This document shows, piece after piece, positions 18,222 through 63,390 of a stretch of DNA of 64,000 bases. The stretch covers positions 5,315 through 69,314 of the forward strand of contig MESW01000002.1 in NCBI GenBank assembly GCA_001771135.1, given 5' to 3'. The notes under the pieces are model-generated. The model was not told the origin of the DNA. It made no database searches and saw nothing but the letters and a program-made list of their open reading frames with translations. Made by a program: the position numbers and the translations under genes. This DNA is from a candidate division CPR3 bacterium GWF2_35_18. GTDB taxonomy: Bacteria; Patescibacteriota; CPR3; GWF2-35-18. Positions within the stretch are counted from its first letter, which is position 1; each line of letters begins with the position of its first letter.

Positions 18222-18623
18222 AGGTCCTCCTCGAACCTGTCCTGCTTCCTCGGCAGGAGTGAACATTTGAATGGTTGGTTGAATTGAATTGGTTGGTGTT
18301 AAACGAACGAATTCTCGAATTTTTCGATAGACCTTCCTTTCTTTTTCTTTGATTTTGGATAGGCGAGCTTGTGAGCTCGAATCTTTTTGGCTTTATGCCA
18401 ATGGGATTAGTGAAGGAAGAAGAGTAATTTCTTTCCTCGCTATTCCCATTGGGAAAAGCCATTTTCAAGGCAATAACCTTGATGCATTATGCTTCAGTTT
18501 TTAAAGAACAATGATGATTTTTACCACTAAAAAATAAATGGAAAAACCACAAATAATGGCGGGAAGTATATCATATATTGATGTGAATATCAAAACTATG
18601 GGATTGAAGTTGGAATTCTGAAA

Positions 18624-36522: not shown

Positions 36523-37086
36523 ATGAAACCTCAATCGTATCGATTTACTCAACCACGTCAAACCGTGGGTTATGCCGCATGTCAGGACGACCGCGTGCAG
36601 GCCGATGTTCAAGTGATTTTAGCTGAAATGGGCTTAGCCCTTGGACATTACTGTGCGATTAACCTGGCTGGTGGCGCTGGTGTTCCGGATCTTATTGATC
36701 GTTTGCTTCCCGAACTGGAAGTTGATCACGAGCACCACAATCCCCAGGGTTGGTTACTGATCGGCCACGAGGAATGCGCCGCCGGTGCCAATCTAGATAC
36801 TCTGTTTACCAATCTGGGACAGATTAAGCAACTCTTTCCGGATATGGTGGGTAAGCTTGTGATTGTTTGGCAGTTCAAGGTCGTTGGTTACCAGGAGAAG
36901 GAGTTTTGGGGTCATGTGTACCTCAATGTAGACGCCGAAACCTCGGTCACCTGGTACATTGTAGTTGGCGATGCGAAGGAGAGCGCGAAAGCGTTCGTAC
37001 TTACAATGACTGGAAAAGATCTTCCCGGTCCTCATATTCTCTCCCGTGACTATACTGATCATGATGTGACGGTGATCGTCGCCTAA
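36523..37086 (+). CDS. Hypothetical Cys/His-rich protein (187 aa) in GC-rich island 2
   Basis: About 52 % GC with GC-rich third positions. RBS GGGAGA. No family recognised. Confidence 0.55.
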   Translation: MKPQSYRFTQPRQTVGYAACQDDRVQADVQVILAEMGLALGHYCAINLAGGAGVPDLIDRLLPELEVDHEHHNPQGWLLIGHEECAAGANLDTLFTNLGQIKQLFPDMVGKLVIVWQFKVVGYQEKEFWGHVYLNVDAETSVTWYIVVGDAKESAKAFVLTMTGKDLPGPHILSRDYTDHDVTVIVA

Positions 37087-45984: not shown

Positions 45985-48900
45985 ATGAAGCTGCCTTCTT
46001 TTTCCAGAATCTCTCTTCGGAGATTATTTTCAGTTATCAGTATTTCATCATTAATAATTGGGACTCTATATTTTGGTAGTGGTCAAAGTAAAGCAGCTTC
46101 CACAATTTCTATTGTTTCTTCTTCAGCGACTAAAGGGGCAACAGTTAATTATGAAATTACGTTAACCTCATCGGTTACTATTCCACAGTTCTCGTATTTG
46201 AATATCTCACTGCGTGGTAATGGTCCTATGGAAGAAGGTTACGCCGCAGATTTCAGCTCTGCAATAATGACCTCTTTTTCTCCAAACGGAAAAGGTGAAT
46301 TTGATGATCAAAATTCACAAAGTGGAAATGTTGGAATAATTATTACTCAAGAGATTACTGCAAACACCGAAATTACCATTAATCTTTCTAATGTGAAAAA
46401 TCCAACTCAATCAGGACTCTATACTCCGGTTTTTGATGTGAACAATCAAGAGAATAAACTTCTTGAAGTTATGGGGCAACCACTTGTAATCGGTAATCTA
46501 AAAGTCCAAGGAAAAATCGAAGATCCTCTTGGTAATCCGGCTGCATATACAGGTTTAGGGTTAACAAATGAAACAAGTAATTACCAGGGAAATACAGGAG
46601 AAGATGGTTCTTTTGGATTTTTTGATATTCCAGCGGGAAATTATCAGCTACAGATTTATCTAGGGCCAGGAAGTCAATATATCTCTCCAGATCCTCAAGA
46701 AATTACGGTGGGTAACGGAGTAACTAATGTCGGAATTATTGCACTTGTTTCTCCTAGTAAACTTGTAACAGGTAAAGTTACTTATCCAGATGGTTCTCCA
46801 GTGACAACTGCTTCTGTAAATGCAAACCGACGTGGTGCTCCAGGGTGGTATGGATCAAATACTAATGCACAAGGTAATTTTAGCCTAGGTCTTCCTGGAG
46901 GCGAATTTGAAATAATGCTTAATCCTCAGTGGGGTCCAGAAGGACAACTTTCTGTTGATTGGGCTTATATGGGTAGACCAGTTACAATAGCTTTTGCCAA
47001 TGATACTATTTCTGAAACAAAATCAGGGGTAAATTTTCAAGTAGTAAATGCTTCTTCGGTTGTAAAGGGAAAAGTGGTTGATCCTGATGGAGTAGCTGTA
47101 TCTCAAGGTGGGGTAGATGTTCGTAATAAAGAAGGTCAAGGTAGCTCCGGTGGCTTTAACAATCAAGGTGTTTTTAGTATCAACGTTCCTGCAGGTAAAT
47201 ATAATATAAATGTTTTTGCAAATGATCAAAGCTTAGCTGTGCCTCCGATGGAATCATTTACAGTTGCTGAAGATCAAACCAAAGATTTAGGAACAATTAC
47301 TCTGGTTAGAAAAACTGCACATATAAAAGGAAAAGTCGTAGATGAAGATAATCAGGGAATTGCTGAAGTACAAATTAATGCTTGGCAATCGAGCACTGGT
47401 GGTGGATGGGGAAATACTCAGACAAATGGACAAGGAACATTTGATCTTTTAGTCTCGAGTGGTACGTGGGAAATAAATGCCATGCCTACTCCTGATCAGG
47501 ATTATGCTATGGCAGGTGGTCCTCCTACTAGAATAACTTTAGGAACAACAGATACCGTTACCGGTGTCAACTTCCATTTAATAACGGCTGACGCTACCAT
47601 TATTGGACAAGTTGTCGATAGTAATAATCAATTATTGGGGAATATCTATGGTTACGCTGAAGCAAGAAGTGCCTCTAAAGAAGAGATGCCAATGCCTGGG
47701 ATGGGAAGTTCTATTCAAAATGGTCAATTTACTCTCAAAGTTCCGGCTGGTACATATGAAGTGAGTGCGATGTTTGAACCGGGATCTCCATATACTTCCT
47801 TAAGTAGTGAAATGGTTACTGTTGCTTCCCAAGAAACTGAAAACGTTTTAGTCGTAGTACGAGAAGACGATGCTACTATTTCCGGATTTGTTTATGACGA
47901 AGAAGGAAATAAAATCACTGGTCAAAGAATAGATGTTTTTGGTTTTAATGATGAGAACTCTCAAAAGATGACGATGGTTGATGAAGAAACAGGGGGATAC
48001 ACTTTGGGTGTTCTTGGTGGATCAACTTGGTTTTTAGGTGTATATATTGATTCACAATCTGGATATGTAATGGTTCCACCAGATAATAATAAAATTACGC
48101 TTGAAGTTGGTGATACCGCAACTAAAGATTTTACTTTACTCACTGCCAATGCAACTCTTTCTGGAACTGTTTTGGATCCTGACGGAAATCCACTTCCAAA
48201 TGTATATGTTTTTATTGATTCAAAAGCAATTGATGATGGGACTGTATTAGGAGCGAGTAGTGTTCGGAGTGGAGAACCAGTTGGCGGTCCAGGTGATGTT
48301 TTAGGAGTTAATGACCATGTTGGAGGACCTGGAGATAATGGTGATGAGGGACCGGGAGTTCATTTTGGAGATCTTACTCGTTCAGACGGGACTTTTATAA
48401 TCTCTATTCCAGCGGGTACTTATGGTCTTGGATCTGGTGCTCCTTCCTCACTAGGATTTATCTCTCCAGGAATTCAAAAAGTCACAATTGAAAAAGATGA
48501 GGAAATTACTGATTTGGTTTTACAATACAAGGAATCGGATGCTCAAATTACAGGTTCAGTTTATTTAAATGGAGAAAAATCTTCCGCTTTTGTTTGGGCC
48601 TGGTCAGAATCAGGTGGTTTCTCTGGTAACTTTACATCAAGCGGGGATTTTACTTTAAATGTTACTCAAGGTGATATATGGCATATTGGTGCTGATTTTG
48701 ATACCAGCGAGCATTTTTACCGTTCAGATGAATATATTGTAGAGGTTGACTCAGAAATAGAAACTCAGGATCTTGTGTTACAAGAAGCTTCGTATACTAT
48801 GCCAGCATCAATTTCTCAGACCTTTGATGCTTCTACTCCCAAGGTTCTTACTTTGGATAATGGAATGACGATCACTATTCCAGCAGGAGCGTTGGCAACT

Positions 48901-49638
48901 GAAGGAAATGTAACTGTAACTGTAACTCCAACAGCAAGATTAGCAAAACAAAAATCTGCTAAACCCCTTGCCTTTGGATATGAACTTAAAGCTTATAATT
49001 CTTCCGGTCAAGAAATAACAACTGCTTTTAACTCAAGCGTTAATATTGTGATGCCTTATACTGAAGAGATGTTGGCAGAGATGGGTATTACCGAAGATGA
49101 TCTATCCGGTGCTTATTGGGATGATACTTCAACCTTATGGCAAGGAATTGAAAGCTATGTTGTTGATCAAGATAATAACAGAATTACTTTAACTGTTGAT
49201 CACTTCACAAGTTTTGCTTTGGTGACTGGAGCCTCTGATACTATCCCAGCAGCAGCGCCAACATCTGTTACAGTAACTGATCCTGAAACTGGTGGAGTGT
49301 TAAACATCGCTTGGGTTAATCCCATAGACACTGACTTTGAGGATATTAGAGTTTATCGCTCTACGGTTTTAGGAACGATTGGTGATTTGGTTACCAACAT
49401 TACCGATAGCAATACAAGTTATTCTGATACAAGTTTAACCAACGGAACAACATACTATTACACTGTTCGTTCTGTTGATGCTGCAGGAAACGAATCGTAT
49501 AACACGGATCAGTATTCAGGTGTTCCAACTCAAGCGCTAACAGAACTTCCAGAAACTGGATTAAGTATGCTAGTTCTAAAAGATTTGATCACAAAGTTAG
49601 TAAATATTATCTGGAATTTAGTTGGATTTGTCTTTTAA
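45985..49638 (+). CDS. Giant (1217 aa) cell-surface protein with repeated CarboxypepD_reg-like beta-sandwich domains, an FN3-like domain and a C-terminal LPXTG sortase sorting signal
   Basis: AAAGGAG RBS. Signal peptide. Repeats of GKV.DPDG...VPAG.Y.. motifs. The C-terminus is LPETG followed by a hydrophobic tail. Confidence 0.75.
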   Translation: MKLPSFSRISLRRLFSVISISSLIIGTLYFGSGQSKAASTISIVSSSATKGATVNYEITLTSSVTIPQFSYLNISLRGNGPMEEGYAADFSSAIMTSFSPNGKGEFDDQNSQSGNVGIIITQEITANTEITINLSNVKNPTQSGLYTPVFDVNNQENKLLEVMGQPLVIGNLKVQGKIEDPLGNPAAYTGLGLTNETSNYQGNTGEDGSFGFFDIPAGNYQLQIYLGPGSQYISPDPQEITVGNGVTNVGIIALVSPSKLVTGKVTYPDGSPVTTASVNANRRGAPGWYGSNTNAQGNFSLGLPGGEFEIMLNPQWGPEGQLSVDWAYMGRPVTIAFANDTISETKSGVNFQVVNASSVVKGKVVDPDGVAVSQGGVDVRNKEGQGSSGGFNNQGVFSINVPAGKYNINVFANDQSLAVPPMESFTVAEDQTKDLGTITLVRKTAHIKGKVVDEDNQGIAEVQINAWQSSTGGGWGNTQTNGQGTFDLLVSSGTWEINAMPTPDQDYAMAGGPPTRITLGTTDTVTGVNFHLITADATIIGQVVDSNNQLLGNIYGYAEARSASKEEMPMPGMGSSIQNGQFTLKVPAGTYEVSAMFEPGSPYTSLSSEMVTVASQETENVLVVVREDDATISGFVYDEEGNKITGQRIDVFGFNDENSQKMTMVDEETGGYTLGVLGGSTWFLGVYIDSQSGYVMVPPDNNKITLEVGDTATKDFTLLTANATLSGTVLDPDGNPLPNVYVFIDSKAIDDGTVLGASSVRSGEPVGGPGDVLGVNDHVGGPGDNGDEGPGVHFGDLTRSDGTFIISIPAGTYGLGSGAPSSLGFISPGIQKVTIEKDEEITDLVLQYKESDAQITGSVYLNGEKSSAFVWAWSESGGFSGNFTSSGDFTLNVTQGDIWHIGADFDTSEHFYRSDEYIVEVDSEIETQDLVLQEASYTMPASISQTFDASTPKVLTLDNGMTITIPAGALATEGNVTVTVTPTARLAKQKSAKPLAFGYELKAYNSSGQEITTAFNSSVNIVMPYTEEMLAEMGITEDDLSGAYWDDTSTLWQGIESYVVDQDNNRITLTVDHFTSFALVTGASDTIPAAAPTSVTVTDPETGGVLNIAWVNPIDTDFEDIRVYRSTVLGTIGDLVTNITDSNTSYSDTSLTNGTTYYYTVRSVDAAGNESYNTDQYSGVPTQALTELPETGLSMLVLKDLITKLVNIIWNLVGFVF

Positions 49639-49670
49639 TTATAAGGGTTAAGAAAATGTTTTTAATTAAA

Positions 49671-49698
49671 GTTCAGACCCCTAAAAAGGGGTCTGAAC
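49671..49698 (+). terminator. Terminator hairpin
   Basis: GTTCAGACCCC-TAAAAA-GGGGTCTGAAC, a perfect 11-bp stem, 30 nt after the stop. The T-run is weak. Confidence 0.5.
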
Positions 49699-49720
49699 TT
49701 GTTCTACCATATAAATCATA

Positions 49721-50362
49721 ATGAAAAGATTGTTTTTTAAGAAGAAAATCATTATTTTAGTATTTCTTATAGCAGTAATCTTGATTACTATCTTTATTGT
49801 TGGAGTTAGTTATCTTTTTATTAAAAATCCTGCTAAATACTACAGCATAAAATCACAGATTTTCCCAATAGAAGATAAAATTCCTGAAAATGTAGACCCG
49901 GTTTCCAAAGATTTTGGTCTGGTAATTCCGAAGATTGGGGTAAATGTTCCAATTATTGCTGATGTAAATGGTTTGAATCCCAATGAATTTTTATGGAAGG
50001 TGACCGAAGGAGTTGCGCATTTTAAACACGTAGAGGCGTATGACGTAATTGTTGATGGAGCTTTTCCAGGGCAAGCGGGAAATATTTTCCTTTTTGGTCA
50101 CAGTCAAATTCCTGGAGGAGATACTTCCAAATATCAAGCGGTTTTTAATGAACTTCCAGTTTTGACCTACGAAGATAAGCTTATCGTATATTATAAAGGA
50201 GAAAAGTATGAATATCGTGTTATTGAGGGAAAAGTGATTGAAAAAACTGAAGTTTACTATTTAGAAAGAACTCCGGAGGAGACTTTACATTTAATGACCT
50301 GTTGGCCTTTAGGTTTTAATAATCAGCGTTATCTAGTTACAGCTTTAAAATCACAGCTTTAA
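49721..50362 (+). CDS. Sortase family transpeptidase
   Basis: N-terminal TM anchor. Catalytic His (LFGHS), the TLxTC-type Cys motif (LHLMTCWP) and a downstream Arg. Sits directly downstream of the LPETG protein. Confidence 0.8.
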   Translation: MKRLFFKKKIIILVFLIAVILITIFIVGVSYLFIKNPAKYYSIKSQIFPIEDKIPENVDPVSKDFGLVIPKIGVNVPIIADVNGLNPNEFLWKVTEGVAHFKHVEAYDVIVDGAFPGQAGNIFLFGHSQIPGGDTSKYQAVFNELPVLTYEDKLIVYYKGEKYEYRVIEGKVIEKTEVYYLERTPEETLHLMTCWPLGFNNQRYLVTALKSQL

Positions 50363-52246: not shown

Positions 52247-52963
52247 TTATTCATTGACTAGATTTTGATTATTTTTCCATCGTTTTTCAAACTCTTCTAA
52301 GATTAAGGCTTTTTCAAGTTGATAATTCCCAATTTTTGTTCGCGTGAGCTTGGAAACATAAGCTCCGCAATTCAGTTTTTGGCCGAGATCATGAATCAAG
52401 GATCGGATGTAAGTTCCCTTTGAACAAAAAACTCGAATTTTAGCTTTTGGTTCGTTTTTCTGTGTTTTTTCTCTAAATTCCAGTAATTCTATCTCAAATA
52501 TATTTATTGTACGTTTTGGAAGGGTTTTGAGGTCTATTTTTTCTTCCCGAGCTTTTTTGTATAATCTTTGTCCATTTACTTTGATAGCGGAAAATGGGGG
52601 AACTGTTTGTTCTTGTTGACCGACAAAATCGACAAGTACTTTTAGGAGTTTGGTCTTATTTAGGGTTTCTATTTTTTCTTGTTCACATCTATGAACAGTC
52701 TTTCCTTCTTTGTCGTACGTATCTGTTTCGGTTCCAAATGTTGCTTCAACAATGTATTCCTTGTTTAGTCCCATGAATTCATCTTGTTTTTTGCATGCTT
52801 TTCCGATTAGAACGATAAGTAATCCTTCTGCAATAGGGTCTAGTGTCCCAGTGTGACCTATCTTTTTTATTCCCGTGATTTTTCTTAATTCCGCAACAAT
52901 ACGGAATGAAGTTGGTCCTACGGGTTTGTGTATAAGTATAGGAGGATATTCTTCTTGATTCAT
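52247..52963 (-). CDS. truB: tRNA pseudouridine(55) synthase TruB
   Basis: GHTGTLDPIAEGLL (the GHxGTLDPxAxGxL catalytic Asp motif). Confidence 0.88.
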   Translation of the reverse strand: MNQEEYPPILIHKPVGPTSFRIVAELRKITGIKKIGHTGTLDPIAEGLLIVLIGKACKKQDEFMGLNKEYIVEATFGTETDTYDKEGKTVHRCEQEKIETLNKTKLLKVLVDFVGQQEQTVPPFSAIKVNGQRLYKKAREEKIDLKTLPKRTINIFEIELLEFREKTQKNEPKAKIRVFCSKGTYIRSLIHDLGQKLNCGAYVSKLTRTKIGNYQLEKALILEEFEKRWKNNQNLVNE

Positions 52964-53548
52964 GTTCGAATTGTAGGAGATTAGATCATAAAAGTCAAAA
53001 AAGTGGAGACAATTTGATTTTTGGGTGATATCAAACTATGGGTTACTATGTGGTTATTGTCACAGCAGTAACATTAATATGTTTAATATAGGACATAAAT
53101 ATAATAAAAATATGGATATTGATTGTTATATAAGGGTAAAACTGTATTTATTGGTAATTATTGCACTTCGTTTGTACTATTATGGGTCTTGACAAATATA
53201 TTTGAATGTGGTAAGGTAATATTGTCCTTTCTAAAAAGGCAATCGTTCATCTCCTAAATTGGGGGGCTGACAAGGTTAATTGGGACGCCGTATGTAGCAA
53301 CAAATGGTGCCGCGATTAGCCCTGATAGCCCCTCAATTGCGTTTCTATAGTAATTTTTCAAAAACTAGAATCCCCCGGAATAGAATATTCTAGAAGTATC
53401 TATCAGCTTTATAGTGTAATTAGTAGGCCTATAAATATTCTGTGTAATTAATTAGGGTATTTTATATTTCCCTTATATATAAATGTATGATTTAAATATA
53501 CTAAAATTTATAGTAAAGTTATGGTATTAAATGTATATCCTATAGTGC

Positions 53549-53577
53549 TTGACAAATACTTAAAAACATGATATACT
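53549..53577 (+). promoter_or_regulatory. Consensus sigma70 promoter P2 (TTGACA-17 nt-TATACT)
   Basis: -35 at 53549-53554, a 17-nt spacer, -10 at 53572-53577. Confidence 0.65.
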
Positions 53578-53583
53578 ATTTTT

Positions 53584-53660
53584 GTTAAGTTGGAGAGAGA
53601 AGAATATATTCCATTTTTTTAAAAGCTCTCTGAATCGATAAGAAGAAGGAGTTTTTTTTG
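53584..53660 (+). ncRNA. Candidate small RNA 1 (about 77 nt): the 5' end reads GUUAAGUUGGAGAGAG, followed by a hairpin and a terminator
   Basis: Starts about 7 nt after the -10 of P2 and ends at the T8 run at 53652-53659. No ATG or RBS-coupled ORF. Paralogous to candidate sRNA 2. Confidence 0.45.
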
Positions 53661-53779
53661 CACTTAAAATATTAGAAAAAATACATTTAAAGATTAGTAG
53701 GTAATCCGAAGTGGAGGAGAGACTCTCCAACAAACAAACTATTTCTCCTCTGCTTCATATTATCTATTAACCCATAGTA

Positions 53780-53808
53780 TTGACATTTATTAAAAATTAT
53801 GCTATACT
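53780..53808 (+). promoter_or_regulatory. Consensus sigma70 promoter P3 (TTGACA-17 nt-TATACT)
   Basis: -35 at 53780-53785 and -10 at 53803-53808. Confidence 0.65.
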
Positions 53809-53814
53809 ATTTAT

Positions 53815-53890
53815 AGTTTGTTGGAGAGAGCAGTAAAAGCAGGAATCTTACTGTATAAAAGAGAGCTCGCCAACGCGCGAGCTTTTTTTG
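53815..53890 (+). ncRNA. Candidate small RNA 2 (about 76 nt): 5' GUUUGUUGGAGAGAG, an internal CAGUAA/UUACUG hairpin, and a terminator GAGCUCGC-CAAC-GCGCGAGCU + U7
   Basis: Promoter-to-terminator unit. No ORF. Shares its 5' motif with sRNA 1. The reverse complement of that motif also occurs at about 53712-53726. Confidence 0.45.
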
Positions 53891-53950
53891 TCGCACCTTA
53901 TAACAAATTACTGAAGTCATGGTTAAAGAATTTATGAGAGGCTTATAACT

Positions 53951-53979
53951 TTGACAAATTATATTATTTGGAGTATATA
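53951..53979 (+). promoter_or_regulatory. Consensus sigma70 promoter P4 (TTGACA-17 nt-TATATA)
   Basis: -35 at 53951-53956 and -10 at 53974-53979. A structured region follows (TTGGGGCT...AGCCCCAA hairpin). Confidence 0.55.
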
Positions 53980-54113
53980 GAAATGTATTTCCCCAAAATA
54001 CTGGAAATATATATGTTGGGGCTTAAAAATTATATAGCCCCAAGCAATGAGAGAGGTGGAATAGCTATCTAAGTAGCTTATTTATAGCTTCTCATATCCA
54101 AAAGCGGTTTTTT

Positions 54114-54171
54114 GTTATTCTGAGCGGTATGTGAAAGATCATTAGAAATTTCTCACTGCGTTCAGAATGAC
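54114..54171. repeat. Palindromic repeat family, copy A (GTTATTCTGAGCG ... CGTTCAGAATGAC)
   Basis: Arms pair with G-U wobbles if transcribed from the + strand. Sits just upstream of the GC-rich block that starts at about 54.4 kb. Confidence 0.6.
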
Positions 54172-54958
54172 AGAAAATAAAAGAATCGGAACTACGAAAA
54201 AGAATTGAAACGACAGAAATAGATGTGGAAGAAGAGGTACGTGTTTAGAACTTTAAAAAAAGAATATTTCGTTAATCTCCGGAAATAATCCGGAAAATTT
54301 TAAATTCTTCTTAATGAAGGAAGATTGCAGTTACTGCAAGGAAGTAAACTGGAAGCTATTGATTTAGTATCTAGTTCGCTTTCTTGCAGGAAGTTGAGGT
54401 CTGTTAGGAAAATCTTTCCGCTTTCATAAGTCGCAAGCGCAGAAAGGATCTGCAGATTTTCAAACCAGAATACTCAGACGGTTGGGTAATAGTCAGGTTG
54501 ACCCTGTGAATCCAAACGAAGTACTGCAAAAAGTGTCGTTCCCGGTTTTTCGGGCCTGAAGGGTTGTACCCCGTAGGCGCCTGGGTAGGACCCAATTATA
54601 GGTCCGCCTAACCGGAAAAAGACCTCTTCCTTTGGAAGGGGCATATCGTGCCTGTCAGGTAATAGGCCTTGCAGTTTTTGTAGAATTTATCCGAAGCTGC
54701 TTTCAGAGCAGTCTTAGATAAGCGGATAGAGGAAGCAAAAATAAAGAGGCTGAAAAACTTGAAGGGCGAAATTGGACAATTTCTTTCAACTCCCCAAACC
54801 GAAAGGGTTAGTAACTTGAGAGGGAACGGTCTCCATTTGTTTTTCTGGTTCCAGTCCAGCTGCCGAATACAGTAGGCAAAAGATGAAAGGACTCAGACTG
54901 AACTTTCAAGAGTGAAACACTCTCTTAGGCAAGGGGTAGTATTCAAGGAGAATGATAT

Positions 54959-56341
54959 ATGGAGACTAAAACCTCCACCCAGAGCCGCAAGGGGCTCTAT
55001 AATATCTTTGCGTCCGTTATCGTAGCCCTGATGCTCGTTGCCGTTTTCTTCGGCTTCGTTGGCACTGCGGCCGCTCAGGAGTCCGTTCCTGACTACCAGC
55101 CCGTGGTTGACCCTTATCCGGTCACCGTGGGCGTTACCACCGCGATCAGCCTCAGCCCGGCACCGACCGCGACGGCCGACATCCACTGGACGATCAACGC
55201 CTCTGATGGTAGTCTCGTGCTGGATACCACCGAGTTCACGGTGACGCATGTGTTCACCAATGCCGGCGATTACACCGTTGGTGTGACGATCAGCGACACG
55301 AATGGCGTGTATGTGAATGCCTGGTTGCTGAACGTGGAAGAGCCGGTTTTGACACCTGCTGCTGCCTTGACCAACCTGTTGACCGCTGTGATGGCGCCTG
55401 CAAGCCCTGATAAAGCCGCTGATGTAGCTGAAGCTGTTGCCGATGTTCAGCGCGCTCTGGGCGTGGTTGTTCGCGGCGCCGTCCAGTCCAATGAAGGCGG
55501 TTCGATCGAACTTCGCCCTGTCCAGCCGATTGCGGCAATGAGTGAAGAAGCTCGCGCTTTGGCTATGGACACTGCTGCTGGCACCGATCTGCACTTCGCA
55601 TGGGGTGCTGGATGGCACAATCATCAGGCCGATTTGGGCGCTGGGACTCAACTGTTGAGCGGCGTCTTCTTCGACTCTGACGATCCGGCCTATTTCGGCA
55701 CCACCGAACCGATCTCTGGCGGCCTCTGGGTGTCTTCGATGTACACCCCCAACGTTAGCCTGGAAACGGCCGAATATACCACGACCTTCACTTCTACCCA
55801 GTGGGTAGACAGCGATGGCAACGGTATGTTTGACCTTCTGGCGGTTGGTAGCCCCTGGGATGGTTCTGTCGTCACCATGAGCCTCGATTACGAAGGCGTA
55901 TACACCGAGACCTGGAGCGTCCAGATCGGTATGGAACCGAAACTGATTAGCACCGAAGGCACCAGCCCTGCACCGGCGACCGCCGATGCTTTCCGCACCA
56001 GCGCTGCTGCTGATACATACCCATTCGTACCCGGTCAGGGTTGGGATGTAGCTGCCAATACGGCTTACACGGACACCGTCTTCTACGGCGCTTACTTCGG
56101 TGGCGCTGATTTTGGCGGCGTCTGCAATGACCACTGCGTGGTTAGCTATGCTGGGCGGAGCTATGAATCGACCGATGCTGATGGCAACGGGACGTACGAT
56201 TTCTTCCTGCCCGGCGCTGGTTCTGCCGAAATCGAAGGCCCTGGGGCTTGGGAATTCACCGTCACCGATGACGATGGCAATACCGAGACCTGGATCTTCA
56301 TCCTGGGCGCCACTCCTCAGATCGTCCCCGCTGGCGAGTAA
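54959..56341 (+). CDS. GC-rich (about 58 % GC) secreted protein with Ig/PKD-like and DxDGNG calcium-binding-like repeats
   Basis: AAGGAGA RBS. Signal anchor with an AAAQE cleavage-like site. DSDGNGMFD and DADGNGTYD motifs. Third codon positions are GC-rich, unlike neighbouring genes. Confidence 0.65.
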   Translation: METKTSTQSRKGLYNIFASVIVALMLVAVFFGFVGTAAAQESVPDYQPVVDPYPVTVGVTTAISLSPAPTATADIHWTINASDGSLVLDTTEFTVTHVFTNAGDYTVGVTISDTNGVYVNAWLLNVEEPVLTPAAALTNLLTAVMAPASPDKAADVAEAVADVQRALGVVVRGAVQSNEGGSIELRPVQPIAAMSEEARALAMDTAAGTDLHFAWGAGWHNHQADLGAGTQLLSGVFFDSDDPAYFGTTEPISGGLWVSSMYTPNVSLETAEYTTTFTSTQWVDSDGNGMFDLLAVGSPWDGSVVTMSLDYEGVYTETWSVQIGMEPKLISTEGTSPAPATADAFRTSAAADTYPFVPGQGWDVAANTAYTDTVFYGAYFGGADFGGVCNDHCVVSYAGRSYESTDADGNGTYDFFLPGAGSAEIEGPGAWEFTVTDDDGNTETWIFILGATPQIVPAGE

Positions 56342-56407
56342 CAATCAAAACTATGCTTCAACCCTGAGGCTGTCTGCAGAAATGCGGATAATAAATAACT
56401 AATGGGT

Positions 56408-56480
56408 GGAAACCTGCCGGCCTCCTGGCCTGCGCGTTTGTACGTCCTGATCTGCGCTCTTTGTGCGCCGGCAGGTTTCC
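56408..56480 (+). terminator. Long GC-rich hairpin downstream of the 460-aa gene (putative terminator)
   Basis: GGAAACCTGCCGGC ... GCCGGCAGGTTTCC, a perfect 14-bp inverted repeat with a 45-nt loop, followed by TTGTCTTTTC. Confidence 0.5.
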
Positions 56481-56890
56481 TTGTCTTTTCATCTTAGTCT
56501 GGTTTTATCTTGACCAGTCCCAAAGCCTATCATTAAGTTGATAGATCCTCAGGAAAACAAGATAAGTGAAGGATTTTTCCTTCCTGGAGTTATAGAGAAA
56601 ATAAAGAATCTATAGCAAGACTCCAAGATGAGGCAATTCCTCATCGAGCTAGTTTGCATGAAAATGCAGTTAAAATTGGTTTGGTCATTGTGAAGGTCTG
56701 TTGTTTTTGTATTGAAGATACATTTATTGTCACCCTAAAAGTGACCTGTCCTTATCATCTTCAAAACACCAACCAACAAAACAACACAATCATCAACCCA
56801 ATCTAGCTTCCCTCTTGTGCTTAGCACCTGATGAAGGCTTGGGAAGATCAAGCCGAAAGAGGAAAGTTAAATTATATATATTAAATCAAA

Positions 56891-56918
56891 AGCCACCCTG
56901 AAAATGGGTGGTTTTTTT
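56891..56918 (+). terminator. Rho-independent terminator that ends an ORF-less transcribed region (about 56540-56918)
   Basis: GCCACCC-TGAAAAT-GGGTGGT followed by TTTTTTT. Confidence 0.65.
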
Positions 56919-56934
56919 GTGCCTTTTTGTATTT

Positions 56935-57038
56935 TGTCATGCTGAACGAAGTGAAGCATCTAGGTCTAAAGACCGCAGTATTGGTAACTGTGCGTTCTGC
57001 CTTTGGCAGAACTAGATCCTTCGTTAAACTCAGGATGA
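56935..57038. repeat. Palindromic repeat family, copy B (GTCATGCTGAACGAAG ... CTTCGTTAAACTCAGGATGAC) with two internal small hairpins
   Basis: Read directly. Sits just downstream of the GC-rich block. Its right arm abuts or overlaps the 3' end of the GIY-YIG gene. Confidence 0.6.
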
Positions 57039-57341
57039 CATAAATAAATTATTAAAATTAGGATTGATAGTCTTTATAAGGCTAATCTTTTTCTCCCTTT
57101 TCCAACCTTTGATTTTCTTTTCTACTTCTATTGCTTCTGTAGGAGAATTAAATTCTTCCATCCAAATTAATTTATATAGTTTGTATTTCTTAGAGAAGGA
57201 ACTTTTTATTATACCTTTTGTATGTTCTTCAATTCTTCTTTCTAAATCATTGGTTATTCCGGTATATAACACAGAATTTGTATGATTAGTAATAATATAA
57301 ACATACCAACTGAAGTTATTCATATTATTTAAGAATATCAT
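57030..57341 (-). CDS. Stand-alone GIY-YIG nuclease domain protein
   Basis: WYVYIITNHTNSVLYTGITNDLERRIEEH (GIY...YIG...R...E motifs). The true start may be the internal ATG at 57323 (MNNFSWYVYII). Confidence 0.72.
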   Translation of the reverse strand: MIFLNNMNNFSWYVYIITNHTNSVLYTGITNDLERRIEEHTKGIIKSSFSKKYKLYKLIWMEEFNSPTEAIEVEKKIKGWKREKKISLIKTINPNFNNLFMSS

Positions 57342-57385
57342 ATATATCGAACAGAAGAATATGATCGTGATATACTTAAAAAAGT

Positions 57386-58867
57386 ATGAAAGTCCTACAG
57401 ATTTGGGGAGCGATTTCCCTGATTATTATTTTTGCTTTCTTATTATCATGGCAACCAATTTTTGCTCTGGCTTTTCTGCTTGGAGTTATTTTTGTAGCTA
57501 TTTCATTTATTAATCCATATTTAGCTACTTACTTGATTGCTATTTTGATTCCTTTTGTTGATCTTATGTCTTCCAAGTGGATGCCTGAAGAATATACAGC
57601 GATAATAAAGTTTGCTTCAGAAATTTCGGTGGGAATTTTACTCCTTACCATTTTTATCAGAAAAGCAGTTCAGAAGGAGAAGTTTTTATTTAACCATGCT
57701 TATCTATATTTTTCTCTCTTTCTTTTATTGTCGGTTTTATCAATTATTGCGAATCAGGTAGACATAGAACACTTTACTTTTGGATTGACTGTGATTATTC
57801 GTTATATCTTTCTTTTTTTTACTGTTTCTCAATTAAAATGGGATAAGAAAAAGTTAAAAACATTCTACGGAGTGATGATTGGAATTGGACTCTTTCAAAT
57901 ACTGATTTCCTTGGGACAGGTAATAATAGGGGATTCCTTCAAGAGTATCTTTGCGGTTGAGGTAAAGAGAGCTATATCTTCAACTACGGTTTATTCGATA
58001 GAAAGACAATCTCTTGATTTGGCTTGGGTTTTTGGAACTTTCTCAAGATATAACTTATTGGGTGGGTTCTTAATGCTTTGGCTAGATTTAGTCTTTGCAG
58101 GACTTTTTATTGTAAGAAGTAAATTCCATAAATTTGGACTTTCTGTTGCTTTGATTTCAGGAATTGTTGTTTTAATTCTTTCCAATTCTCGTAATTCTTG
58201 GATTGGAACATTCTTCGGTTTTATGTCGATTCTGATTCTTCTTAATAAACGTAAAGTGGTAGCTATCGCATCTATTGTCGTTGTTTCTTTGGCTATGCTT
58301 TTGGTTTCTGTGTATGAGCCTGTTTCTTTGTCAATCACGGAAAGCTCTGGGGCTACTCCTGTAGAGCGTTTTTTGGGAGTATTTTCCGGCGAATACATCC
58401 AAAAATCATTACAAAACGATCGGTTATTTCTGATCAGCAAAGCTTCTCAGCAGGTGATTGCATATAAGCCACTACTTGGAGTAGGAATGGGATCAGCTTG
58501 GTCATCTCAAGAAGCAGCCTTTGGAGATTTTAAATATGGAGTCCTTTTAGGTTTGCCTGTTGATGCTTGGTATTACTTAGGAGATGTGGGATGGATTGCC
58601 ATTATGACACAGGTAGGACTTTTGGGTTTAGTGGCATTCTTGGGATTTATCATTAGTCTCTATTCTCAAGCCTCAAAATTGTTAAAAAGATATTTCGGAA
58701 TTGAAAAAGTATTAATCGTGAGTTTCTTGGCCATGATTGTAGCGATGATTATTACCAATATTTGGTCTTTTAACTTTACCTATCGTTCAGTTAGTTTCTA
58801 TTTCTGGCTTGTTGGAGGAGTGGTTTTTAGCTTTTTTGGGAGGTCGAAAAAGGAGCAAATATCATGA
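57386..58867 (+). CDS. O-antigen ligase / Wzy_C domain family polytopic membrane protein
   Basis: About 12 TM segments. Periplasmic loop with LSNSRNSWIG (similar to the O-antigen ligase SRxxxxG motif). Confidence 0.6.
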   Translation: MKVLQIWGAISLIIIFAFLLSWQPIFALAFLLGVIFVAISFINPYLATYLIAILIPFVDLMSSKWMPEEYTAIIKFASEISVGILLLTIFIRKAVQKEKFLFNHAYLYFSLFLLLSVLSIIANQVDIEHFTFGLTVIIRYIFLFFTVSQLKWDKKKLKTFYGVMIGIGLFQILISLGQVIIGDSFKSIFAVEVKRAISSTTVYSIERQSLDLAWVFGTFSRYNLLGGFLMLWLDLVFAGLFIVRSKFHKFGLSVALISGIVVLILSNSRNSWIGTFFGFMSILILLNKRKVVAIASIVVVSLAMLLVSVYEPVSLSITESSGATPVERFLGVFSGEYIQKSLQNDRLFLISKASQQVIAYKPLLGVGMGSAWSSQEAAFGDFKYGVLLGLPVDAWYYLGDVGWIAIMTQVGLLGLVAFLGFIISLYSQASKLLKRYFGIEKVLIVSFLAMIVAMIITNIWSFNFTYRSVSFYFWLVGGVVFSFFGRSKKEQIS

Positions 58868-59919
58868 AAATCTTGATGCTCGTAAATTGGAAAATAAACT
58901 ACTTAGATTCTGAGGATGAACTTATCCAGTCTCCAGACAAAGTAGTGAAAGGGGAACCATACTGGTTTTTTAAATACTTCAAAGAAAAACATGAAGTGGA
59001 TGTCGTGGGAATAAAAACTACTCCCGACTGGATTTATGATTTTGAGAAAAACAAGCTTCATTTTTATCTTCGTCAACCTTTTTCGATGTGGGGAAAAAGC
59101 GAAAAATACGATTTAATTATTTCGCATGGATCACAGTCAAGTCTCTTTCTGTCAATATTAAGAAGAATAAAGAGTAATAAAAATACTCGACATTTACTTA
59201 TCGATGTAGGTTGTATGAATGGAGGAAGAGAAAGTGGTTTAAGTTTAAAACTAGTCAAACTTGCAGGTCATAAACTGGATGGAATTATCTATCATGCTTC
59301 TATTCAAAAAGGATATTACGAAAGATATTTATCTTGGTTAAAGGAGAAATCTTTTTTCATCCCGTTTGGAACGGAAACAGGGTATTATTTTCCTAACTCA
59401 AAAATTAAAGAAGAACCTTTTGTTCTCGCTTATGGAGCTATAAAAAGAGATTATGAGACCTTAATAAAAGCGGCAAAAAGTTTACCACAGATTCAATTTA
59501 AAATTATAGGACTAATTGATTTACCTTTTGAAGTACCGCCCAATGTGGAGTTGATACCTTTTATGGCGGTTGATAAACTGCGTGATTATATTTGGCGTTC
59601 CAGACTGGTAGTGATTCCTTTGCCGGTATTTAATTACGCCTATGGGCAAATGACACTTTTGCAGTCGATGGCCTGTAAAAAGGCGGTTGTGGTGACAAAA
59701 ACACCGAGTACGATTGATTATATTGAAGATAATAAAACCGGGATTTTTGTGAAACCTTATGATGTATCTGATATGAAAGAAAAGATTGAAAGGGTTTGGA
59801 ACGATGAAAAGTTAAGGAAGATGTTAGCGTTGAGTGGAAGTGAATCAGTAAAAGCTCAATTTAATGAAGAATTGATGGGATTGAAAGTAGAAGAGGTGAT
59901 AGAAAAGATTATGAAATAG
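58864..59919 (+). CDS. Glycosyltransferase family 1 (GT4-like, retaining GT-B)
   Basis: C-terminal GT-B nucleotide-sugar binding region (FMAVDKLRDYIWRSRLVVIPL...YGQMTLLQSMACKKAVVVT...). Overlaps the upstream gene by 4 nt (ATGA). Confidence 0.72.
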   Translation: MKILMLVNWKINYLDSEDELIQSPDKVVKGEPYWFFKYFKEKHEVDVVGIKTTPDWIYDFEKNKLHFYLRQPFSMWGKSEKYDLIISHGSQSSLFLSILRRIKSNKNTRHLLIDVGCMNGGRESGLSLKLVKLAGHKLDGIIYHASIQKGYYERYLSWLKEKSFFIPFGTETGYYFPNSKIKEEPFVLAYGAIKRDYETLIKAAKSLPQIQFKIIGLIDLPFEVPPNVELIPFMAVDKLRDYIWRSRLVVIPLPVFNYAYGQMTLLQSMACKKAVVVTKTPSTIDYIEDNKTGIFVKPYDVSDMKEKIERVWNDEKLRKMLALSGSESVKAQFNEELMGLKVEEVIEKIMK

Positions 59920-59948
59920 AGAACTAGATAATAAGTAGATAACAAAAA

Positions 59949-59985
59949 AGCCCCTGGTTTTGATATCAAAACCAGGGGCTTTTTC
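59949..59985. terminator. Bidirectional rho-independent terminator
   Basis: AGCCCCTGGTTTT-GATATC-AAAACCAGGGGCT, flanked by an A-run and a T-run. Confidence 0.75.
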
Positions 59986-60373
59986 TATTTATATTCCTTA
60001 TTCGGCTTGAACTTCCCAAGCCAGCGGTTCAATTACTTGAACGACTTTGTTTAGATGAGTCTAAACAATCTTCAGGTGCTACTTTGCCCCGCCAAAGGCG
60101 GGGGCACATAAGGAAAGGTAGGGAGAGGAGATAGAGTTTGTGAGGTTGGTGTGTGAAGATGTGAAGAAAAGACCAAGATTTGGTCTCACAAATTGTTCTA
60201 TCTCTCTCCCTAGCGGGTTCTTTAATCGCCAAAAGGCGACTTTCGGTGCCCACGGGGTTTATTCCGTGTTACATTGTTCGGGTTTAGACCCGTGGGCACT
60301 TTTTAGCGGGGAACCAAGTCATGCGGTTCAAGGCATGTCTTTTTTAACACTATGCCCGCTTTCGAGCGACTTT

Positions 60374-61687
60374 TTATGGCGCGAGATTAACGTGCCAGCG
60401 CTCGATGATATTTCCGACTTTGATCTCTACCGTCCAGGGGGCGGTGCTTGAGCAACCGGCATCAAAGATGCCGTTGCCATCATCGTCGGTTGCCGTAAGG
60501 CTTTCATCATTGCAAGTGATTTGCATATCGGCGTTATCCACGCTGATTGACAGAAATTCGACATTCAGCGCGAACAAGCCAAAGAGGAAGTCTTCCTGTT
60601 CTGGATTGCTCCAGCCCTGACCGGTGGTGAGAGTGATCGTCCCGCGATCGATGACCGTGGGAGGAGTGTAGTCTTTGTATGCCAGGGGGATAAATATCTG
60701 GTACGTTGTGGGCGCTGGTGAGATGACCGTGACGGTCATGGTGTCACTGACAACATTTCCTGCGACGTTGGTGGCAGCAACCTCAATAACTTTTTCACCC
60801 GGAGTTTCCCAGACGAGGGCTTGTTGTACGCCTAACGACAGTCCGTAAAACTCAATCTCTCCGAGGTCAGTGGCCGTGAAGTGGTAGGTGACGTTGTTAG
60901 TTGCGGTGACGTTCGTCATCGCTGTTAACGTGATTTCTTCACCAATATATCCATTGAGAGGGCCTGCAATTTGCACCCATGTGACGGGCACTATCTGGTC
61001 TGAAATGATTATTTGATTGTAATCCTGGAGACGATACTCAGCCCAAGCAATCATTCCGACGATTTCGGTTTGGCCAGTTTCAGTGAGCACCATAGTGTCT
61101 GTCAGAGTGAAAACTTCATTCGGGATCAGAATTCGATCTCCGCATTGTCCCCACGGAGCCCGTAAGGATACTGTTGCCGTCATGTTGCCGATGTTAGTGA
61201 TGCTGAACTCAACATCGAAGGGTTGATTCACCTGGACTTCTGCAGGGGAATTCACGTACACAGTGAAGAAGGCGTCGTTGCGAACGATTTTAGCCGGAGT
61301 TTCGTTAGTGACGGTGAATGTCCATGTTTCGGTGATGATTCCGTCAGTAATGATGTAGAGATCGTTGATAGGACTCAAGAAAGCCTGGTCGTTATCCATG
61401 CTGAGTGTCCAGGTATAGCCATCAGAGCGGGTTACGATTCCTTCACCATAGGCGTGGATTCCGTCTTGATTGTCCGCATAGAGATGGTTAATTGGGCTGC
61501 CGGCTTCAAAACCTTCGTTTAAAAGATCCATCTCAGGGTTCAGGATGGCTTCTACGGTGATAGTATTTACAGTTTGTGCAGCAGTCGCATTCTGCGTATC
61601 GGCAAAGCTCAATAGAGCAATGACAGCTACGAGCGCGATAAGGATAGAAATTGCCGGGGTTAAGCGGCGGATAGCATAAGCGTTCAC
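60374..61687 (-). CDS. GC-rich secreted protein (437 aa) with a C-terminal DDDGNG Ca-binding-like module; paralogous in part to 54959..56341
   Basis: GTG start with an AAGGAGA RBS 7 nt upstream. Signal peptide ending ATAAQT. The C-terminus (TATDDDGNGIFD...WTVEIKVG...ERWHVNL) resembles TDADGNGTYDFF...WEFTVTDDDGNTETWIFIL of the 460-aa protein. Confidence 0.62.
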   Translation of the reverse strand: MNAYAIRRLTPAISILIALVAVIALLSFADTQNATAAQTVNTITVEAILNPEMDLLNEGFEAGSPINHLYADNQDGIHAYGEGIVTRSDGYTWTLSMDNDQAFLSPINDLYIITDGIITETWTFTVTNETPAKIVRNDAFFTVYVNSPAEVQVNQPFDVEFSITNIGNMTATVSLRAPWGQCGDRILIPNEVFTLTDTMVLTETGQTEIVGMIAWAEYRLQDYNQIIISDQIVPVTWVQIAGPLNGYIGEEITLTAMTNVTATNNVTYHFTATDLGEIEFYGLSLGVQQALVWETPGEKVIEVAATNVAGNVVSDTMTVTVISPAPTTYQIFIPLAYKDYTPPTVIDRGTITLTTGQGWSNPEQEDFLFGLFALNVEFLSISVDNADMQITCNDESLTATDDDGNGIFDAGCSSTAPWTVEIKVGNIIERWHVNLAP

Positions 61688-62097: not shown

Positions 62098-62976
62098 ACT
62101 ATTTATTCCCATGATTTCTCCCTGCAAGTATTTGTCTCAATCCTTTTTAAAGTACAAAATCTAAATGTCTTCTTCCGTTTCTTTATTTTCTTACTTTGTT
62201 TTTCTGTAGTTTCGATGGTTTTTAGCTAGAAGAAGGGGAGAGATTTTGTCTGGAGAGATTTTGATCTCTCCACTTCTTTTTAACCAAAAAACCGCCTCTG
62301 GATGGGAGACGGTCAGTGTACCAAAATACTACTTTAAAGCAGTATTTTAAGTCAATTGTCTCTCTCCAGACATATTCAGTTTGTTATTATGTATAATAGC
62401 ACAAATTAAGGGAAAAGTCAATACTATAGGATTAAATATGTGTTTTCTTTAAATTTGGAGAAAGATTAAGAAAAGGGGAAGAGGAGAGGGAAGAGCGAAA
62501 GAAATAAAAGTGGAAACAAGGATAGTTTCAAAAGAGCCAAGGCTCTCCTTTCTATGCCGGACCGTGGTGGTCTTTTGGCTTTTGAAAGTAGCTCCTTGAG
62601 TCTACACTTTTTATCTTTCAGTCTTCCCGTCCACCAAATTGGTGAACTACCGTTTGTATATATTTTAGTTGGATACGGTGGTCCAACCTCCAGAGGGGGG
62701 AGGGAATGGCAAGCTGATCAGGCACACATGGATTTTGTCCACGTTCGCGCGACTGTCATTCTCCTCCCCACTTGGAGTCAAAAATTGTGAGGTGTTTGTG
62801 CCACCAGAATTATCTACAGTCTCCTCAGGCTGTAAAGTTCAAAAGTGACACGAATCCCTATTCGTCCAACAATTTCTTAGACGAATTCGTCTTTCTCTTT
62901 TATCTTCTTTTTCTACCGAGCGGTCCGAGCAGGGTAAATCAATCAGAGAGAAAGGTCTCCCAATCACCTCAAAGCT

Positions 62977-63390
62977 TTACGGCCTTGGCCCGATAGTGGG
63001 CAGAGCAGGTGTTTGGGTGGGGGTGGGGGTCGGTGCGCCAATCAGGGTGTTGCCTGCAGCAGCAACTGTAGCTTTAGCGTTTGTGACGCCATTTGCTGCT
63101 TGTGTTGCCGTCGCCTGAGCGTTGACCAGATTATTGGCCGCTTGTGTAGCAGCATTCTGCTTGTTCTGCAGATTCTGGATAGCGCTTGCCTGATTAGCTT
63201 CAGCGTCTTTGAGTGCGTCAACTGCACCATAAACGCCAGCCGAATCATCTGTCGCGGGGGTCGCGGTCTCTTTGACGGTTATTTCTACTGGAATCCAGTC
63301 CCATGTTTCTGTGGGAAGGTAGTAGTATAACGCCGTCACGAGGACGACTAACCCGAGCAATGCCAATGCATAAAGCCCAAGTTTCTTCAC
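62977..63390 (-). CDS. GC-rich small membrane-anchored Ala/Thr/Gln/Asn-rich protein (137 aa)
   Basis: GTG start with an AAAGGAGA RBS. N-terminal TM helix. Low-complexity AANNLVNAQATATQAANG repeats. Pro/Thr-rich C-terminus. Confidence 0.5.
   Translation of the reverse strand: MKKLGLYALALLGLVVLVTALYYYLPTETWDWIPVEITVKETATPATDDSAGVYGAVDALKDAEANQASAIQNLQNKQNAATQAANNLVNAQATATQAANGVTNAKATVAAAGNTLIGAPTPTPTQTPALPTIGPRP

Follow-up and report, generated by a model that had tools for sequence, protein, structure and literature searches.

Surface proteins of monoderm bacteria carry retention modules such as SLH, CWB2 and GW, and in Borrelia the surface-antigen genes of the vls locus stay far more GC-rich than the AT-rich genome that carries them. 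Members of the Candidate Phyla Radiation (CPR, or Patescibacteria) are thought to live attached to other cells, and few of their surface proteins are understood. Here we analyse a stretch of 64,000 nucleotides (the window in what follows) from candidate division CPR3 bacterium GWF2_35_18, in which two GC-rich genes encode predicted secreted proteins, A and B, that are 100% identical to the hypothetical proteins A2X44_04900 and A2X44_04920 of this organism. Both contain loops that resemble the calcium site of the Dx[DN]xDG motif, which, as described by Rigden and colleagues, binds Ca2+ near-identically in at least 16 unrelated folds, a distribution for which convergence was argued, and which is always completed by an acidic residue further along the chain (PMC3123361).

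A first-pass annotation of the window had described A and B as a paralogous family of secreted proteins with dockerin- or thrombospondin-type-3-like (TSP3-like) calcium loops, encoded by imported blocks that may come from a single donor. We find that the two proteins are related through a previously undescribed, all-beta module of approximately 110 residues. Judged from sequence, A and B are probably lineage-specific, exported, acidic multi-domain beta proteins of the CPR3 bacterium, linked by this module and by its putative Ca2+-binding loop, with a role in the cell envelope. The domain with its calcium-like loop is undescribed; the class of loop motif that it resembles is known.

A module shared by proteins A and B

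The anatomy of the two genes is given below, with positions in the window followed by residues of the protein (aa) in brackets.

54959..56341, + strand: protein A (A2X44_04900), 460 aa; open reading frame (ORF) identical to the NCBI record
Layout of A: signal peptide or anchor (aa 1-40), PKD domain, helical segment, module copy 1, module copy 2
55130..55309, + strand: PKD domain of A (aa 58-117), Pfam PF00801
55583..55939, + strand: module copy 1 of A (aa 209-327); hidden Markov model (HMM) domain 203-329, independent E-value (iE) 6e-35
55808-55834: loop DSDGNGMFD of A copy 1 (A 284-292)
55964..56338, + strand: module copy 2 of A (aa 336-460); HMM domain 336-455, iE 9e-42
56174-56200: loop DADGNGTYD of A copy 2 (A 406-414)
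56267-56293: DDDGNTETW, terminal hairpin of A copy 2 (A 437-445)
60374..61687, - strand: protein B (A2X44_04920), 437 aa, GTG start; orthologs P0004 and P0006
Layout of B: signal peptide or anchor (aa 1-36), N-terminal beta domain, Ig-like middle region, C-terminal module
60377..60721, - strand: C-terminal module of B (aa 323-437); HMM 323-436, iE 3e-40; hhalign 93% to A-type copy 2
60461-60487, - strand: loop DDDGNGIFD of B (B 401-409)

The ORFs of 460 and 437 aa were found as first described, together with the strings quoted from them, including WTVEIKVG...ERWHVNL, GTAAAQE and NATAAQT. Both proteins were cut into domains, and every pair was scored by Smith-Waterman alignment against 300 composition-preserving shuffles. 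Only the three DxDGNG-bearing segments stood out, with z = 8.4 for A 331-460 against B 323-437, z = 5.6 for A 226-330 against B 323-437, and z = 5.0 between the two copies of A (A 226-330 against A 331-460), while the remaining 25 domain pairs all gave z < 3. Separate profiles were built for A-type copy 2, A-type copy 1 and B-type modules and compared by hhalign, which gave 93% over 86 columns for A-type copy 2 against B-type, 79% over 94 columns in a further comparison across subfamilies, and 84% over only 39 columns for A-type copy 1 against B-type. The HMM of A copy 2 scores the module of B at 26.4 bits. Because the shuffle scores (z 5-8) and the subfamily profiles that recognise one another (hhalign to 93%) agree, similarity limited to D/G/T-rich composition, the outcome on which the first-pass annotation would have been abandoned, is not borne out.

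An alignment of ten module copies from the window and its relatives places a series of hallmarks in constant order: G-x-G-W near the start, L-x-G-x-[YF], the loop D-x-[DN]-x-[ND]-G-x-[FYL]-D, P-W and, at the end, a strand with E-x-W. The G-x-G-W element, the Gly of L-x-G-x-[YF], the Trp (usually as P-W) and the E-x-W strand are invariant. This alignment bears out the earlier description of a calcium-ligand-like loop followed by Trp-containing beta strands, homologous in A and B; the third string of A that had been read as a further loop, DDDGNTETW, aligns instead to the hairpin preceding the invariant E-x-W strand. A carries two copies in tandem and B a single copy at its extreme C-terminus, the order of modules is the same in A-type relatives, and Ser/Ala/Pro-rich linkers directly precede the modules. 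By these comparisons the module of approximately 110 residues is a real, homologous domain common to A and B.

The relationship extends no further, as far as the alignments reach: the module alone relates A and B, and the remainder of the two proteins differs. Full-length BLASTP of A against B aligned only 91 C-terminal residues (30% identity, pairwise E 7e-5), and full-length profile comparison aligned the signal peptides only. The term paralogous family thus fits the common module and not the proteins along their length. The N-terminal domain of B is possibly a degenerate module, as hinted by residues 71-159 of its ortholog P0004, which match HMM positions 17-109 at iE 0.009. The PKD match in A (aa 64-116) is marginal, at 23.9 bits against a Pfam gathering cut-off of 23.5 (E 4e-5), and the UniRef name of A is also 'PKD domain-containing'. 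A weak NCBIfam match to the CPR pilus protein PamR was dismissed, as it reaches 16.6 bits against a cut-off of 300 and lies inside the PKD domain.

The loop as a putative calcium site

Each module contains one loop, in its C-terminal third. In 9 of the 10 copies, loop positions 1, 3, 5, 6, 8 and 9 are kept and positions 2, 4 and 7 are variable, with G, N, K or T at position 4 and D/N swaps as in DANGDG. The Asp at position 9 is invariant in 10/10 copies, and corresponds to the later acidic ligand expected of the Dx[DN]xDG class. The ligand spacing is that of the EF-hand/Dx[DN]xDG calcium site, with side chains at 1, 3 and 5, Gly at 6, a hydrophobic residue at 8 and an acid at 9. Only copy 2 of P0002 (DANGDG) matches Dx[DN]xDG exactly, and eight other copies read DxDxNG, the Asn at position 5 being found in some EF-hands too. 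The second loop of A, DADGNGTYDF, nearly equals DADGNGTIDF, the loop of calmodulin EF-hand 2. The sole matches of the module profile outside the family are weak (E about 1e-4 to 1e-12, as a sum over numerous short segments) and fall on SdrD_B, FG-GAP, EF-hand and dockerin proteins, all known carriers of calcium loops. Conservation of this kind makes it most likely that the loop binds one Ca2+, which would rigidify the module.

Sequence and profile searches gave no match of the module to Pfam, NCBIfam, PHROG or PDB, and a match to GEVED covers just 12 profile positions (E 0.0035). The dockerin type I model (PF00404) did not match the two proteins at E <= 1, nor the modules even at E <= 10; the TSP_3 model of thrombospondin type 3 (PF02412) matched neither A nor B at E <= 1, nor the modules; EF-hand models matched neither A nor B at E <= 1, nor any module; and the SdrD B-like domain (PF17210) gave no model match for any module, only reverse, loop-level matches. 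The architecture differs as well. Dockerin has two tandem calcium-binding segments of approximately 22 residues, each with a helix after it, whereas the module has a single loop per 110 aa and is predicted, with low confidence, to be all-beta; the repeats of TSP3 are contiguous and have paired cysteines, whereas the loops of A lie approximately 120 residues apart in separate modules; position 12 of the loop is never the bidentate Glu of the canonical 12-residue EF-hand loop, which has its other ligands at positions 1, 3, 5, 7 and 9 and lies between two helices; and the calcium loop of SdrD B-like domains is near the N-terminus of a prealbumin-like domain, not in the last third as here. The models place strands on both sides of the loop, at a predicted local distance difference test (pLDDT) score below 50-70. 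Membership of the module in the dockerin or TSP3 families, as far as the models and the layout of the loops can tell, is rejected. Of the earlier label 'dockerin/TSP3-like', the linear motif of nine residues stands; the family does not, given that no family model matches and that one loop occurs per beta module of approximately 110 aa, with no tandem loops. The likeness of the loop to known calcium loops is, by these searches, at the level of the motif only and, because the motif is convergent across folds (PMC3123361), constitutes an analogy rather than family membership.

Relatives, rarity and synteny

An exhaustive HMM search with the module profile against 1.84 billion representative proteins returned 14 proteins at E <= 1e-3, only about eight of which are true members. 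P0002 is the ortholog of A (67% identity), P0003 is B itself, and P0004 and P0006 are relatives of B (43-45% identity). P0005 consists of two modules and nothing else in 326 aa, P0008 and P0009 combine other N-terminal domains with one C-terminal module, and P0022, obtained by cluster look-up, is the full-length form of these last two. In all, the family counts only about nine relatives. No homologue was found in phage records (tblastn), GTDB species representatives or PHROGs, and scans of Joint Genome Institute (JGI) metagenomes returned only the window's own population and the contig of P0016.

A and B are convergent and lie on either side of a pair of envelope-glycan genes.

57386..59919, + strand: Wzy_C (O-antigen ligase/polymerase-like, 493 aa) and GT1 glycosyltransferase (351 aa), assigned by Pfam, between A and B

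The arrangement of the window, namely an A-like gene, a variable slot, Wzy_C, GT1 and then a B-like gene on the opposite strand, is kept in four of the five contig groups with informative flanks, and the genes are present at the same site in contigs L001, L003 and L004. Contig L008 is AT-rich and shows no Wzy_C or GT1, and L009 does not reach far enough for a judgement. All members whose contigs are informative sit in an AT-rich context (32-41% GC). The flanking Wzy_C and GT1 proteins are 47-74% identical between relatives, and synonymous sites are saturated, with synonymous divergence (dS) ranging from 1.45 to infinity. Protein A is under purifying selection relative to its L001 ortholog, with a nonsynonymous divergence (dN) of 0.27, a dS of 1.45 and a dN/dS of approximately 0.19. 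In these searches the module occurs in a single CPR lineage only, where it is linked to a locus for envelope glycans.

The variable slot between the A-type gene and Wzy_C (window 56341-57386) holds a GIY-YIG gene here and HicAB or other toxin-antitoxin pairs elsewhere. In the slot and upstream region of relatives (L001 3440-4630, L003 5355-7600 and L005 1-1460) we observed HicA/DUF7387, BrnT/CopG and DUF2283 genes, which differ from one relative to the next, and the spot is prone to insertion.

A diversity-generating retroelement or other diversification signature, which the first-pass annotation had suggested looking for near these genes, was not encountered: no repeat of at least 40 nt of the template/variable kind involves A or B in the window, where reverse transcriptase was not exhaustively scanned for, and variants in the population, within 90% clusters, differ by single residues. 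Tandem repeats in the window are trivial.

Export signals and regulatory elements

Every family member has a single hydrophobic segment, located at the N-terminus, preceded by basic residues and followed by A-x-A, the sites being AAA|QE in A and ATA|AQ in B. In their mature form these proteins are strongly acidic, at pI 4.0-4.3, and A has 55 Asp+Glu against 8 Lys+Arg. Sec-dependent export of A and B is therefore plausible from these features, the N-terminus being either a cleaved signal peptide or a signal anchor, and the signal peptides ending in AAAQE and ATAAQT that were first proposed are present as strings and plausible as secretion signals, given the hydrophobic segment, the A-x-A and the acidic mature part.

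The following transcriptional elements and untranslated regions (UTRs) accompany the two genes and their GC-rich neighbours.

53772..53808, + strand: promoter-like element CCATAGTATTGACA-N17-TATACT, approximately 1.15 kb upstream of A
53549-53577, + strand: weaker second copy of the element, upstream of A
62393..62429, - strand: copy approximately 0.7 kb upstream of B; a terminator-like hairpin follows at 62314-62290
63923-63887, - strand: copy upstream of a 137-aa ORF
18601-18588, - strand: copy in a looser pattern, upstream of the 212-aa ORF 17628-18266
Contig L008, 1831-1840: copy upstream of P0022
56400..56911, + strand: 3' UTR of A, with hairpin GGCTTGGGAAGATCAAGCC at 56836-56864 and a terminator at 56893-56911
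59945..60373, - strand: 3' UTR of B; bidirectional terminator at 59945-59984, and at 59994-60022 the hairpin element also present in the 3' UTR of A

The promoter-like element may also be written CYATAGTATTGACA-N17-TATACT. Its 14-mer ATAGTATTGACWTT occurs three times in the 64 kb, against 0.09 expected. A, B and the 137-aa ORF, all of them GC-rich genes for secreted proteins, each have one copy on the coding strand, at a distance of 0.5-1.2 kb upstream. These copies are the best sigma-70-like promoters of the region, scoring 10-11 of 12 with an extended -10. Within about 60-100 nt of each promoter copy there follows a hairpin with a T-run and then a long leader, an organisation that suggests an attenuator or a small RNA.

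The 3' UTR of A is 87-88% identical in nucleotides to that of its L001 ortholog over 56400-56800 (within the aligned stretch 56400-56830 against L001 3540-3950). The coding region, whose synonymous sites are saturated, is less similar (58-84% per 100 nt). The UTR contains no credible ORF; it is probably a functional RNA or regulatory element. The 3' hairpin GGCTTGGGAAGWTCAAGCC is common to A and B. None of the promoter, leader, UTR and hairpin elements has an Rfam match. Because long conserved UTRs are unusual in a small dense genome, the A and B genes appear to form a regulated unit native to the lineage.

Ahead of A-type genes (54500-54640 on the + strand, L001 1610-1740 and L008 2560-2680) the 5' leader has a conserved GC-rich segment in which CCCGG...CCGG brackets several hairpins, although RNAalifold on three sequences of the element (about 54540-54640) gave a covariation term of only -0.98 kcal/mol. 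The interval 52963-54959, which holds both tandem promoter copies and the leader, is devoid of ORFs of 60 aa or more other than a longest of 63 aa over about 2 kb, which is unusual for a compact CPR genome. A candidate hammerhead ribozyme (CUGAUGA...GAAA, about 56827-56860) was rejected: it has an extra base before stem II, is not conserved in B or in the 3' region of L001, and has no Rfam match at E <= 5.

Further GC-rich ORFs occur in the window. A third GC-rich gene at 62977-63390 (- strand) encodes the 137-aa protein, which has a membrane helix at the N-terminus, a stretch rich in Ala/Gln/Asn/Thr, a Pro/Thr tail and no module. Positional counterparts in L002 (1070-1489 and 1-273) are of similar style and have no detectable similarity to it, and the ORF was not retained as a member of the module family. 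The ORFs 17628-18266 (- strand, 45% GC) and 36523-37086 (+ strand, 50% GC) lack a signal peptide, match nothing in Pfam or PHROG and do not belong to the module family.

A proposed envelope function

In the reading that we prefer, A and B act in the envelope through the module, which, stiffened by Ca2+, would be their functional handle and also recalls calcium-dependent glycan-binding domains. The module may either hold A and B on the cell's own surface glycan or bind the surface of a partner in a calcium-dependent manner. The attachment to a host or partner that the first-pass annotation raised would be one possibility.

Several findings weigh against this proposal. At position 5 of the loop most copies have Asn where the strict Dx[DN]xDG motif demands Asp, position 12 holds L, A, C or L and never Glu, and the loop of P0005 copy 2 is degenerate (1/10 copies). 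The AlphaFold models are of low confidence, with a pLDDT of 48 for the six-copy module alignment and 45.6 for full-length A (8 rows), and the best Foldseek E-value against PDB, obtained with the poor module model, is 0.33 (SiiE). The structure prediction is poor because sequence depth is too low, and the fold may be described only as all-beta from these low-confidence models. A and B carry no LPXTG, SLH or similar wall anchor, so that their retention at the surface is conjecture, and this genome's normal surface anchoring is a native sortase system at 45985-50362 (+ strand), in which a 1217-aa surface protein (45985..49638) with CarboxypepD_reg repeats, FN3 and a C-terminal LPETG motif is followed by the sortase. 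The genome of L001 and L002 breaks the synteny with Wzy_C and GT1 on one side, the B-like gene of L002 lying away from GT1. Lastly, a role as envelope proteins leaves the GC-richness of the genes unexplained.

The alternative that survives best accepts the module and denies the calcium site, A and B being instead substrates of O-glycosylation, lectin-like binders or proteins of an S-layer-type lattice. The Wzy_C family includes O-oligosaccharyltransferases, and the synteny with Wzy_C and GT1, the Ser/Ala/Pro-rich linkers before the modules, the strong tandem promoters and the long UTRs are all in keeping with such roles. We nevertheless regard this alternative as unlikely, since conservation at positions 1, 3, 5, 6, 8 and 9 is exactly the pattern of a metal-ligand loop, and since roles as glycan substrate or lattice protein are compatible with calcium binding.

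GC-richness and the question of import

That the genes are GC-rich, as first reported, was confirmed for both: the A gene has 58% GC (0.584) and the B gene 50% GC in a window of approximately 34% GC. The GC content of third codon positions (GC3) is 0.649 in A and 0.555 in B, against about 0.27 in neighbouring genes, and because this position is also GC-rich, the deviation does not follow from amino acid composition alone. In contrast, the 1217-aa LPETG protein is equally rich in Gly, Thr, Ser and Asp, yet has a GC3 of 0.21. All family members are GC-rich (53-66% GC, GC3 0.55-0.86 against 0.24-0.47 for neighbours on the same contig), and in A-type genes third-position A falls to 6-8% and third-position C rises to 42-47%. 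The GC3 of A-type genes follows the host background at a near-constant offset, being 0.65 against a background of 0.27 here and 0.78-0.79 against about 0.41-0.47 in L001 and L004, as would be expected if AT pressure across the genome were balanced by a gene-specific force favouring GC.

One by-product of this bias is an antisense ORF of 483 aa (54893..56344, - strand) that is codon-aligned with A. It was rejected as a gene: it is open because A is depleted in third-position A (A3 0.08) and hence lacks TTA, CTA and TCA codons, which are likewise absent from the A orthologs P0002 and P0022.

The import of the genes as blocks from a single donor, which the first-pass annotation had proposed, would here mean recent horizontal transfer from one GC-rich donor with amelioration not yet complete. 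It would account for the strong compositional deviation, which includes codon position 3 and the UTR shoulders, and it draws on the variability between relatives of the slot beside A (GIY-YIG or toxin-antitoxin genes), an insertion-prone region. However, of the features of a genomic island only the deviant composition was found, with neither absence at the same site nor a homologue in a donor. Orthologs occupy the same syntenic positions in at least four diverged AT-rich relatives, with flanks 47-74% identical and dS of at least 1.45, and are equally or more GC-rich (GC3 0.58-0.86). No donor-side homologue was found among the 1.84 billion representatives, phage records and GTDB representatives. 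Codon bias is not uniform among the three secreted-protein genes (A3 0.08, 0.19 and 0.25), and the promoter motif that they have in common also stands upstream of a fourth GC-rich ORF, 17628-18266. It would be far-fetched to suppose that four lineages independently received this rare family at the same site, when the donor is missing from 15 billion proteins. We therefore consider recent import improbable. Vertical inheritance with a force that keeps GC is the simplest reading, because a transfer retaining a GC3 of 0.65-0.86 would be too recent to pre-date saturated synonymous sites, and by gene order and divergence A and B are old residents, inherited vertically within the lineage.

We suggest, tentatively and with considerable reserve, that the GC-richness is a stable, locus-specific compositional state rather than a scar of transfer, and that the co-regulated envelope genes possibly encode major (S-layer-like) surface proteins. 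In such a state a GC3 of 0.55-0.86 would have been held in genomes of 32-41% GC over more than one substitution per synonymous site. Candidate forces are selection on the mRNA (stability, or avoidance of third-position A), GC-biased gene conversion at a hotspot of recombination, or a force of a new kind. A search for literature on GC-rich secreted-protein genes in CPR genomes, or on this genome, found nothing relevant.

Least probable of all, and by a wide measure, is that A and B form no real family and resemble each other through D/G/T-rich composition and a convergent motif of nine residues, for although full-length profiles align at the signal peptides only, subfamily HMM scores are modest (26 bits at best) and the motif is known to evolve convergently, z-scores of 5-8 are confined to the three motif-bearing domains, hhalign reaches 79-93% over 86-94 columns, well beyond the loop, in two of three comparisons, G-x-G-W, the Gly, the Trp and E-x-W are invariant outside the loop in 10/10 copies, and A-type relatives keep the order of modules.

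Comparison with known systems

The module adds a newly defined extracellular domain with a probable calcium site, a candidate for envelope assembly or attachment to a partner. The persistence of GC-rich genes in AT-rich genomes across deep divergence, with no donor found, runs counter to the rule that deviant GC indicates recent transfer, and this puzzle could expose a gene-specific force on base composition.

Among described systems, carriers of the EF-hand or Dx[DN]xDG motif (calmodulin, dockerin type I, TSP3, integrin/FG-GAP blades and SdrD B repeats) have the same ligand spacing as the module. The module differs from them in having one loop per approximately 110 aa, no predicted flanking helices, no Glu at position 12 and no tandem repeats. 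Calcium-stabilised Ig-like adhesins, such as SiiE with its BIg domains, the MpIBP 'Ca tandemer' and PKD surface proteins, are, like A and B, secreted, very acidic strings of beta domains, and A also has a PKD domain. In the non-significant Foldseek matches of the poor model, SiiE stands at ranks 1, 2, 4 and 10 and an MpIBP-type adhesin at rank 32. A and B are, however, small (46-48 kDa), with three to four different domains, no giant repeats and no significant match to these adhesins in sequence or fold.

SLH, CWB2 and GW offer a likeness of arrangement, in that one C-terminal module is common to different exported proteins and lies beside envelope-glycan genes. They have no sequence relationship to the module, and binding of a wall polymer by the module of A and B, by analogy with them, would be pure inference. 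The vls system of Borrelia differs from the A/B locus, which has neither silent cassettes or repeats nor hypervariation in the population, and resembles it in the GC-rich state of its genes.

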